Assembly (NCBI GenBank): GCA_039621445.1
Contig: CP154954.1
Span: forward strand, 22,208,954-22,272,953
Origin: Euglena gracilis
Lineage: Eukaryota
Length of the DNA: 64,000 nucleotides
Reading direction: 5' to 3'
A program made the position numbers and the translations under genes. The notes beneath the pieces are model-generated. The model saw only the letters and a list, made by a program, of their open reading frames with translations, was not told the DNA's origin and did not search any database. Below are positions 270-63,000 of this stretch, in pieces. Every line of letters begins with the position of its first letter. Positions within the stretch are counted from its first letter, which is position 1.

Positions 270-3200
270 GGCATGTCCTCCTGCTCGAGGGAGGGCAGGA
301 GGAGGTCGACGGGGCGCAGGCCGGCGTGGTCGCAGCAGAACAGGTTGGCCCCCCGGTCCAGCAGCGTGGACGCCCCCACGCCGCTGCGGCGGAACACTCG
401 GGAGGCATTCGCCCGACGCGGAGGGGTGGGAGGAGCAGCAAAACCCATTTCTGGTTCCAAAATGGTTCCAGAAATTGTTTGGCAATTATTTATTATTTAT
501 ATTTGGAAAAAGAATGGATGCAGCGAAGCGCTTCGTACTGCCTGAGCGGCTCAGCAAGGCTTTCCAAGAGACAGTAAATGCTGCTGCTGGGTGCCTGAAG
601 GCGAAACACCTACATGAACATCAACGCTCAATGTAGCAACGTAATTCTCGAATACTTGAGTTCTTGCCCTGCAAAGTTCTTGTTCCTCAGTTTTGTTCTT
701 TTTACAGATACAGGATCGCCGGATGAAACGGGGACGGTGCGGTAGCGCCGGCGTGGCCACCACCTCCCGCAGCTGGAGGTCGTCGTACTGGTGGTGGTTG
801 GTCGCCGGCGGCAAGGCCCCGGGGCCGGCCCCAATCCCGGGCCCAGCCCCGCCCCGCCGTTTCCCGGGGGCTTGGCCAGCAGGTGCAGGGCGGTGCGGCC
901 GTCGGCGTCGCGGAAGTTGGCCGGCATTTGCCCCTCCTGGATGCCGGTCTGCGGAAGGCGGGGCAAGGCGGGGGGGGGGGTTGGGGGGTTCTTGCGATGG
1001 CAACACACCGCTCTGGCTCTGTGACCAGGCACCTATGGTCACTTCCCATTTTGGTGCTCTGGTCGGCCCTGGTCGGCCCTGGTCGGCCCTGGTCGGCCCT
1101 GGTCGGCCCTGGTCGGCAAATAGTCGGCCATAGGTGGGGGTATCCGTCACAGAAAAAAAGATTGTGAAAAATGACCCAAAATTACCAAAAGGGCACAAAA
1201 TGGCCAAAATGCCATAAAATATGCTCATATTGACCCAATTAGCCCAATATTTGCCAAATCAGTGACTGCGGTCGGCTGAAAATGGCTAAAAATGGCCAAA
1301 AGTGGGCAAAGGCCAAAGAAAAGCTGTTTTGGCCACTGTTTTTGCAAATTCAGAAGCTGCACCTGGCGCAAAATGCTCAAAAATGGTCAAATTGGACCAA
1401 AAAGAGACCAAAAAATGGACAAAATTACAAAAAAAGGTCGAAAATGGCTTTAAATGGTCAAAAATGGCCCAAGAGCGGGACAAAATGGCCCAAAATTACA
1501 AGAAGTGCGCAAAAAAATGGCCAAAAATGGTCAAAATAGGTCAAAATTGGCGAATTATGGTTACAAAAAGGGCCAAAAGCGATTATGGTTACAAAAAAAG
1601 GGGACAAAAGGGACCTAAAAGGACCAAAAGTGGCCAAAAGTGGCCAAAAGTGACAACATGAGCCAGATGAGCCAGAAAAATCTCAAAATCTGGGATAAAA
1701 ATGAGCCTAATTCCTCATTCTCACTGAAAACTTGACATCAATTAGAAAAAAGTTGCGCGGTCAGCTGCGGTCGGCTGCGGTTGGCTGTGGTCGGCTGCGG
1801 TCGGCTGCGGTAACCCGCGGTCGATGCTGCCGGGCCAGCATCGCCCAGCATCGCCCAGCATCGCCCAGCATCATCAGAGGTGCTTGGTCCAGAGGGAAAG
1901 CTGCTGAATTCCTTCATCCATTCCCCTTCCGTCGGCCAACCACATGCAAGTCGGCCCTGGTCGGCCCTGGTCGGCCCTGGTCGGCCCTGGTCGGCCCTGG
2001 TCGGAACCCCCACCTACGGGGGTCCTGAAACTCATAGTCGGCCCTGGTCGGCCCTGGTCGGCCCTGGTCGGCCCTGGTCGGCCCTGGTCGGCCATAGGTG
2101 CCTGTCTGTGACGTTCCGTACAGCTCTGCACACCCCTCCCCCGTCGACAGTGAAGTGGGTTCCCCCTGGGTTCGCTACCAGGAGGACGTCCCCCACCCCC
2201 CCGACCCTCACGGGGTCCAGCCCAAGCCCACCTGGCTTTATGGCAAACGCTGAAGGGATGGGGCTCTGTGACAGGTTGCGCCGCGCGGCATCAACACTGC
2301 CGTGCGTCGTGTTCCCCAACTGCACACAACAAACCTCCACCCGGCTTTACCTCACCCCCACGGCGGGCTGGGGGCGCCACACCATCATGCCGGTGAACTG
2401 CGACTTCAGGGCCCGCAGGGAGATGGTGGGGCGGGTGGTGTCCTTCTTCGTGGTGAACGACGCCAGGAAGCCCTGCAGCCGCGCCTTGGGGATGGCCCGC
2501 CGCGTCCCCTGGCCGCCCGCCGGCCCTGGGGGGGGCAAGTGAGGGAGGAGCAGGGGCTTTTTTTTTTAAAGACCGGGGGGTCCCCACCACCCCCTGGGGC
2601 TCCGGGGGGGGGGTCCTGGGGGACCCACCACTTTCCCCCCCAAAAATGGCCAAAAAATTGTGAAAAATTAAAAATAACACCCTTTTCATTTTTTTTGGTG
2701 CCTTTGGCGCCGAAAAGTATATTCCACCCCCCCATGGGGGAACCCCCCGGGGGGGGAGTGGGGCTCGGACCCACCCACCCACCACTCCCCGGGGTGCAAG
2801 ACAAAAAAAAAACCCCTGGGGAGGAGGGGCGGCCGGCCCCACCAGGCATCGGCGTGGCAGACAGGCATCGGCAGGCATCACCGGCAAAATACTTCATTTC
2901 CAGCGCACGCGGACATGTGCACAGGTTTTTCATATGAGAAGCTGTCTCCAGCAAAGTATATTGAGGGGGGTGGCAGCTGTGGGGAGAATGCACCACAGTG
3001 CCAAAATAAGCCATAAAAAAAATTCAACAAAAAGCAACTGTATGGGAGTGGTTTAGGACCTCCTCGGAGTGAACCCTGAGGGGAAACTTCTTCTGTGTGC
3101 AGCACATTGAATCTTGGACAATCATCCACACTTCTCCACCAAAAACAAAAACAGCAGTGTGAGCAAAACTTGCACAATTTCACAAAAAATCCGAAAAAAA

Positions 3201-63000: not shown

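Follow-up and report, generated by a model that had tools for sequence, protein, structure and literature searches.

The 64,000-nucleotide (nt) stretch of Euglena gracilis DNA analysed here (GenBank assembly GCA_039621445.1, contig CP154954.1, positions 22,208,954 to 22,272,953 of the forward strand; hereafter the window) is high in GC content and abundant in repeats. It carries two recognizable multi-exon genes on its minus strand, one encoding ankyrin repeats and one encoding WD40 repeats, together with a set of small elements that begin with CAG, end with CTG, are mostly flanked by 8-bp target-site duplications (TSDs) and resemble transposable elements of the miniature inverted-repeat kind (MITEs). 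The WD40 gene also contains an intron of the nonconventional (NC) type, which would be removed by cuts placed 3 nt before CAG and 5 nt after CTG. From the geometry shared by these features we arrive at a reading to which we assign a probability of about 0.45: that NC splicing is a precise-excision system acting at the level of RNA, whose spacers sum to the 8-bp footprint of CAG...CTG transposons, so that insertions of such elements into exons would be removable from birth.

The elements were sought as CAG...CTG pairs whose terminal inverted repeats (TIRs) are complementary at 11 or more of the 14 terminal bases. Perfect 8/8 flanks were present at six of the 188 pairs so defined, compared with an average of 0.11, and at most 2, when the flanks were permuted 5000 times, and a relaxed scan (TIR at least 10/14, TSD at least 6/8) added a seventh element with a perfect TSD, having CAT at one end. 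The copies recognized are designated by family letter and copy number, and are given without strand:

1026-2104, MITE B1: 1079 bp; TIR CAGGCACCTATGG; TSD TCTGTGAC, 8/8
2551-2818, MITE A1: 268 bp; TSD GGGAGGAG, 8/8; within the GT-AG intron 2526-3546 of the minus-strand gene
23940-24187, MITE A2: 248 bp; decayed TSD GTATGCAC/ATCTGCAC, 6/8
28100-28513, MITE E1: 414 bp; TIR 11/14; TSD CTGTGGAC/CTGCGAAC, 6/8
40483-41246, MITE A3: 764 bp; TIR CAGGGGTT(C/T)TTTTT; TSD GGCGGGGG at 40475-40482 and 41247-41254
40669-41196, MITE C1: 528 bp; perfect 19-nt TIR CAGGGTTGGATGGGAAGCC; TSD AACCCGCC, 8/8; nested in A3
44291-44691, MITE D1: 401 bp; TIR CAGGGTT(C/T)GATATAAGGA; C-run flanks; TSD reads CCCCCCCC
51204-51599, MITE D2: 396 bp; 88-89.5% identical to D1; in a C run
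52761-53042, MITE F1: 282 bp; TIR 13/14, with CAT instead of CAG at one end; TSD GTCCTGAC, 8/8

A preliminary description of this DNA, made from the sequence alone, had reported at least six MITE families ending in CAG...CTG, most with 8-bp TSDs, and this is borne out. The nine copies fall into six families (three copies of A, two of D and one each of B, C, E and F in 64 kb), range from 248 to 1079 bp and carry TIRs some 16-25 nt long; all are bounded by CAG...CTG except at one end of F1, the terminal pentamers being CAGGG, CAGGC or CAGAC, with a single CATGC. Their TSDs match at 8/8 positions in seven copies and at 6/8 in the other two. The nesting of C1 within A3 accounts for A3 being three times the length of A1 and A2. 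No TIR elements with other termini or a longer TSD were seen in the non-repetitive sequence of the window. For family D the length of the TSD is ambiguous, since both copies are flanked by C runs; the likeness between them (44283-44702 and 51196-51610) reaches about 8 nt into these flanks, which could reflect either a preference for C/G-run targets or insertion into a common G/C-run repeat. When metagenomes were scanned with the family D TIR, the 17 loci retrieved were single ends with no partner TIR and no likeness beyond 19-22 nt, a chance-level result. G-run palindromes of the type GGGGGGGGTCCGGACCCCCCCC are common to families A, C, D and E. Mutually cross-matching, microsatellite-like arrays (CA/TG, GACA/GTCT-type and TATG-type units) occupy 23531-23900, 28961-29641, 42317-42711, 56112-56540 and 63388-64000, and yield most of the spurious TIR/TSD matches in relaxed scans.

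The published NC intron code, 5'-N3CDG-/-CH'GN5-6|R, was defined by knock-in mutagenesis (Nomura et al. 2025, PMC12501133; papers are cited here for the passages covered, by PubMed Central number). Its 5' spacer is strictly 3 nt, one base more or fewer abolishing function, and at its 3' spacer 5 nt is optimal, 6 tolerated and 4 poor, while 7-8 fail; the code is fitted by 61.2% of E. agilis NC introns and not by the remaining 38.8% (PMC12501133). The most conserved pairs of NC introns are +4,+5,+6 with -8,-7,-6 (Milanowski et al. 2016, PMC4770533). In the window these properties come together in the last repeat of the WD40 gene. The features of this gene are:

32902-39819, minus strand: WD40-repeat gene, one repeat per exon, with six inter-repeat introns
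39186-39584, 38819-39059, 37771-38692, 33909-37644, 33493-33782 and 33157-33366, minus strand: GT-AG introns of the WD40 gene, all of the same phase
32905-33073, minus strand: predicted canonical NC intron, 169 nt, splitting the last WD40 repeat; GGC-CAGGG...CCCTG-TGGCC|G; slidable by 3 nt

At its 5' end the intron at 32905-33073 has the 3-nt spacer GGC followed by CAG, in agreement with N3-CDG, and at its 3' end CTG is followed by the 5-nt spacer TGGCC and an exon starting with G, in agreement with CH'G-N5-6|R. Its minimum free energy (MFE) fold contains the pairs +4/-6 to +8/-10 and +10/-12 to +12/-14. The ends are not GT/GC-AG, and removal of the intron restores both the reading frame and the WD40 repeat. 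It is the only non-GT-AG intron among the seven of the gene and occupies a position shared by no other repeat, which fits a late insertion. The six GT-AG introns, 210 to 3736 nt in length, by comparison all follow the codon that specifies G in the xxTG linker. A constant spacing of 12 residues separates the W of each WD40 repeat from the GH of its successor in four Euglena-type relatives (6/6, 6/6, 8/8 and 8/8 linkers), and when this constraint was applied a GT-AG solution in a common phase was obtained in all six inter-repeat gaps. The history of the gene looks like a duplication of exon plus intron, after which the last repeat received a single NC insertion. As far as can be judged from sequence, 32905-33073 is well supported as a canonical NC intron, and among the five introns listed in the preliminary description it alone combines independent protein support, the canonical code and the helix.

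The nearest relatives of the WD40 gene in a search of 5.8 billion proteins include two EukProt entries, one of them EG_transcript_271, with 57-65% identity over single repeats. Relatives of this kind, and an intron in exact agreement with the published Euglena NC code, indicate nuclear DNA of a Euglena-like organism. P0001, a 171-residue Logan-contig protein, matches the locus at 33008-33478 (minus strand) at 97% identity and is the sole match at near-query lengths; it reads unspliced through two WD40 exons, the GT-AG intron that separates them and the first part of the NC intron, has a one-residue indel in the intron, and probably derives from another allele or strain, as DNA or pre-mRNA. Upstream of 39.8 kb no further exons of the gene were detected at E<=1e-3, so that MITE A3 cannot be placed in its transcript.

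Placed on a CAG...CTG element, the published cut, 3 nt before CAG and 5 nt after CTG, takes 8 flanking nt and hence one copy of the TSD; the arithmetic of the preliminary description, by which the N3/N5 cut removes the element plus exactly one 8-bp TSD, is therefore correct. The arrangement N3-CAG...CTG-N5 is present at every element in both orientations, and a purine at the start of the exon is found in at least one orientation in eight of the nine copies. An element transcribed within an exon would then be excised together with 3+5=8 flanking nt, restoring the pre-insertion mRNA whichever way the element lies. On this model, which we hold to be the likeliest reading, the match is no coincidence, and NC introns would largely start as CAG/CTG insertions with 8-bp TSDs, spliceable from birth; the TSDs and TIRs would decay later, and the CAG/CTG helix and spacer lengths would remain. 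The agents may be a structure-guided endonuclease and a ligase yielding circular introns, as suggested by the statement that excised NC introns are circular (PMC11282704). What the window shows is the elements, their TSDs, the arithmetic and one canonical NC intron at a lineage-specific position; we infer the transcription and splicing of elements that land in exons, the descent of old NC introns from them, the hAT assignment discussed below and the enzymology. A strain-specific, recently gained NC intron in the gapC gene of E. agilis is reported to have "eight nucleotide direct repeats", longer than those of the other introns analysed (PMC4770533), and the agreement of this observation with the CAG/CTG ends, the 8-bp TSD and the published spacers is what makes the link deserve attention. 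We put the chances that NC introns descend from CAG/CTG elements with 8-bp TSDs at even.

Several components of this model have precedents. A MITE-like origin has already been proposed for NC introns (PMC3935182) and for the introns of diplonemids as well (PMC12621601), CAG/CTG have been described as TIRs and the junction repeats as TSD-like (PMC11282704), and a machinery mitigating transposon insertions has been suggested (PMC12501133). A statement equating 3+5 with an 8-bp TSD, or an assignment to hAT, was not found in full-text literature searches, which covered main texts as distinct from supplements and figures. We are inclined, with about equal confidence and reserve, to regard the equation of 3+5 with an 8-bp TSD as a testable refinement of the known MITE-origin hypothesis.

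The remaining introns and candidates come mainly from the ankyrin-repeat gene:

227-21053, minus strand: large, multi-exon ankyrin-repeat gene, colinear with residues 220-1004 of P0149 (2711 residues)
368-754, minus strand: ankyrin-gene intron, 387 nt, non-GT-AG; slidable over 364-370 (microhomology CCACGC)
813-871, minus strand: intron given in the preliminary description, 59 nt; uncertain
8693-9091, 17073-19038 and 20348-20923, minus strand: gaps in the large ankyrin gene lacking a GT/GC-AG solution that scores close to the best one for homology
62124-62240, minus strand: candidate intron at 62.2 kb, 117 nt; perfect 12-bp helix CATCCCACTGCC/GGCAGTGGGATG exactly at +4/-6

The ankyrin gene comprises about 20 exons of 20-60 codons each across 21 kb, each about 35-69% identical to P0149, and about 19 introns, mostly GT/GC-AG, with at least three gaps that have no GT-AG solution. 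P0149 itself is of ENA source, from a 1.15-Mb contig; ankyrin is its sole Pfam domain and its cluster at 90% identity has one member. A 3' ankyrin exon used as query in a search of representative proteins retrieved P0149 at 55% identity and one weak match; no relative closer than P0149 was found in the 5.8 billion proteins, and a region search with P0149 returned P0149 alone. The three gaps listed above may represent further NC introns, and in one of them CACCTC/GAGGTG form a perfect helix of 6 bp at +4/-6. The 1962-nt ankyrin-gene gap holds short matches to internal MITE motifs.

Junctions were compared as the last 5 exon nt plus the first 3 intron nt versus the last 5 intron nt plus the first 3 exon nt. 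All five pairs of 8-mers put forward in the preliminary description reproduce on the minus strand: CCCCCGCC/CCCCCGCC at 40478-41249 (8/8, or 7/8 on the plus strand at the literal coordinates), TGTCGGGC/TGGCCGGC at 32905-33073 (6/8), GCCAAGCC/GCCTTGCC at 813-871 (6/8), TGGCCACG/CGTCCACG at 368-754 (6/8) and GTCCGGAG/GGCCAGAT at 62124-62240 (5/8), where the ends are CAT/ATG instead of CAG/CTG. Since 40478-41249 is MITE A3 plus one TSD, its 8/8 identity and its agreement with the NC code arise by construction; its ends are unpaired in the MFE fold, and calling it an intron is unsupported. For the four non-MITE junctions the probabilities of an identity at least as high, given local composition, are 0.010, 0.016, 0.008 and 0.051; their in-register identity is 23/32 versus 34/96 at 24 flanking offsets (Fisher p=4e-4); and the mean for ten GT-AG introns of confident placement is 4.0/8 (Mann-Whitney p=0.008 versus the four), all three comparisons being uncorrected for the free choice of boundaries. 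When these four introns are pooled with the three NC-like ankyrin-gene introns, which were bounded by homology and the +4/-6 helix, blind to junction identity, the count is 30/56 (binomial p=0.004 versus the flanking rate). There is, then, a modest excess of junction identity over chance in the window.

Against NC splicing as an excision system for CAG...CTG elements stands, to begin with, the quality of the intron sample. Apart from 32905-33073, the listed introns may be mis-bounded or not introns at all, their 5-6/8 identities being products of GC-rich low complexity and free boundaries; we take this to be a real, if tentative, possibility. A 71-nt alternative to 813-871 (802-872 to 807-877) fits the length of the homologue better (score 36 vs 29) and, if right, lowers the junction to 3-4/8; with neither CDG/CH'G at N3/N5-6 nor a +4/-6 helix in its MFE fold, 813-871 is doubtful as an intron. 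The code and the helix are likewise absent from 368-754, which homology supports as an intron, though apparently not one of the canonical NC kind, and which can be slid over seven positions; at both sites identity runs past the -5..+3 window. No recognizable coding context was found around 62124-62240, and 40478-41249 is similarly placed, the surroundings of A3 being (GGGGC)n-like DNA, open in all frames, to which no relative aligns. In addition, the relaxed scan returned 303 pairs of similar quality in the window, mostly chance or satellite, so that 6/8 junction identity by itself discriminates nothing. The assertion that the five listed were each of the nonconventional introns present is not confirmed, one being well supported and three further NC-like introns unlisted. 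Those three match at 2, 2 and 3 of 8 positions, the level of chance; the excess over controls anticipated in the preliminary description is visible in the pooled count and missing from the unselected introns, and the "age series" of decayed insertions, built on the four selected ones, is not established. Several points speak against an artefact of selection: WD40 conservation fixes the boundaries of 32905-33073 and the 12-bp helix those of 62124-62240, junction identity playing no part in either, homology to P0149 is best satisfied by a length of 387 nt for 368-754, and the pooled excess survives the addition of unselected introns. Moreover, selection of introns touches the window sample only, and not the argument drawn from the literature.

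That argument has to be weighed against coincidence, which we consider rather unlikely: the spacers would reflect the shape of a structure-specific RNA-cutting enzyme, NC introns would arise otherwise (such as from filler DNA taken up in double-strand-break repair, or by conversion of conventional introns), the MITEs would be unrelated residents, and the junction repeats would be repair microhomology. Milanowski et al. (2016) indeed ascribed the 8-nt repeats of gapC to double-strand-break repair (PMC4770533), the three unselected introns have chance-level identity, and the off-code fraction of E. agilis NC introns (38.8%; PMC12501133) points the same way, as does the tolerance of N6 at the 3' side (PMC12501133), so that the cut does not measure off 8 nt rigidly. 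No intron of the window resembles a MITE family. By blastn the best match was E=5.7e-4, within the 1962-nt intron, with none below E=0.016 for the small introns; no MITE copy coincides with an intron in the window, in the manner of near-identical copies serving as introns in different genes; and the overlap of intron termini with MITE families, on which the preliminary description had staked its model, is absent past the CAGGG/CCCTG termini of one intron. The only elements with a determinable genic context, A1 and B1, both lie within conventional GT-AG introns, B1 in the one whose neighbouring exons end at 2383 and start at 942 (949-2382 being a GT-AG option that has a C-rich tract); these two perfect MITEs sit there harmlessly as passengers, not as exon insertions rescued by NC splicing, and no perfect-TSD MITE demonstrably interrupts an exon within the window. 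No spliced WD40 orthologue was present among 672 matches to longer proteins (best identity 65%). The chance of a spacer sum of 8 could, by our own estimate, be roughly 1 in 10 among plausible sums, and the model accounts for the sum, not for its 3/5 split. Coincidence must for its part absorb a match of resident elements to the code in both its CAG/CTG identity and its spacer sum of 8, which are independent features, as well as repeats of exactly eight nt at a documented, newly gained intron (PMC4770533); for microhomology left by repair, a peak at 8 would have no reason. The history might also run in reverse, with an older, helix-guided 3/5 excision coming first and fitting elements being tolerated in genes, hence abundant, so that most NC introns need not descend from elements. 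Diplonemid NC-type introns, which have G/C-rich inverted repeats instead of CAG/CTG (PMC12621601), suggest such an old, flexible machinery, and the perfect +4/-6 helix of 62124-62240 with its CAT/ATG ends and the splicing of CGG-CCG and CGG-CTG variants (PMC12501133) are in keeping with it. We nonetheless think this order of events improbable: TSD length is fixed by the transposase, so that the fit would need selection among superfamilies, and the elements of the window are mostly outside demonstrable exons, so that there is no visible sign of their being maintained by tolerance in genes.

Two further blocks of repeats in the window may be recorded. At 57126-57889 lie GC-rich units of about 206 nt, repeated in tandem at 91-93% identity, and next to them a 1.3-kb block of tandem and inverted repeats at 58249-59580 contains open frames of 400-600 residues without a Pfam match.

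The origin and mechanism of euglenid NC introns have been open for three decades, and support for the MITE hypothesis has come solely from "inverted repeats near the ends". Once the spacers are equated with the TSD, that hypothesis yields sharp and cheap predictions for existing data, the 649,158 junctions available for E. agilis: junction repeats anchored on the helix should peak at exactly 8 nt, introns should fall into families in common with intergenic CAG...CTG elements, and empty alleles should equal the filled allele minus the element and 8 nt. The link also reinterprets the 8-nt repeat at the new gapC intron, earlier ascribed to break repair (PMC4770533). If NC splicing is indeed an excision system of this kind, it would constitute a second way, independent of the spliceosome, for a transposon superfamily to make introns genome-wide, it would explain why about 70% of E. 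agilis introns are nonconventional, its circular RNA product would carry the element and one reconstituted TSD at the joint, and it would offer a rationale for the design of synthetic introns in Euglena.

Among known systems, hAT MITEs share with the elements of the window the 8-bp TSD, short TIRs beginning with CAG, small non-coding size and nested insertion (C1 in A3). The terminal consensus of hAT is YARNG. Judged by TSD and termini the elements may be called hAT-like MITEs, a weak label; what stands of the earlier hAT assignment is the 8-bp TSD and the CAG termini, and what tells against it, and against the model that includes it, is the lack of any transposase domain in 20 open reading frames of the longest class scanned with Pfam, which gave one weak Atrophin-1 match below the cut-off. 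Merlin transposons of E. gracilis likewise have 8-bp TSDs, with TIRs of 24-462 bp beginning 5'-GG (PMC8101967), and so provide a second candidate source of 8-nt footprints in Euglena. As the superfamily of the elements described here Merlin is ruled out, reported Merlin TIRs beginning with GG whereas these begin with CAG and their TIRs are some 16-25 nt long. With the euglenid NC introns of the literature, 32905-33073 shares every feature of the code and the +4/-6 helix; in the passages covered, that literature differs from the present account in that it does not equate the spacer sum with an 8-bp TSD and names no superfamily.

Introners are DNA transposons that create spliceosomal introns, the TSD supplying one splice site; in Micromonas the TSD is 3 nt (PMC11282704). 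The likeness to the elements considered here is close, in that splicing removes the element and one copy of the TSD, the insertion is spliceable from birth, and the elements are short, non-autonomous and TIR-bearing. Introners differ in using GT/GC-AG and the spliceosome, whereas the proposed cuts would take their position from a helix that the TIRs form in the RNA, and in existing as near-identical intron copies, a trait for which no such family was seen in the window. In maize, removal of Ds from transcripts uses cryptic spliceosomal sites and is imprecise, and Giroux et al. are said to have described Ds being spliced out of maize transcripts in 1994. Archaeal and tRNA bulge-helix-bulge splicing is helix-guided, independent of the spliceosome and yields circular introns, as NC splicing does according to the statement cited above; as in the excision proposed here, the position of its cuts depends on how far they lie from an RNA helix, a likeness that may be taken as an analogy of mechanism only.

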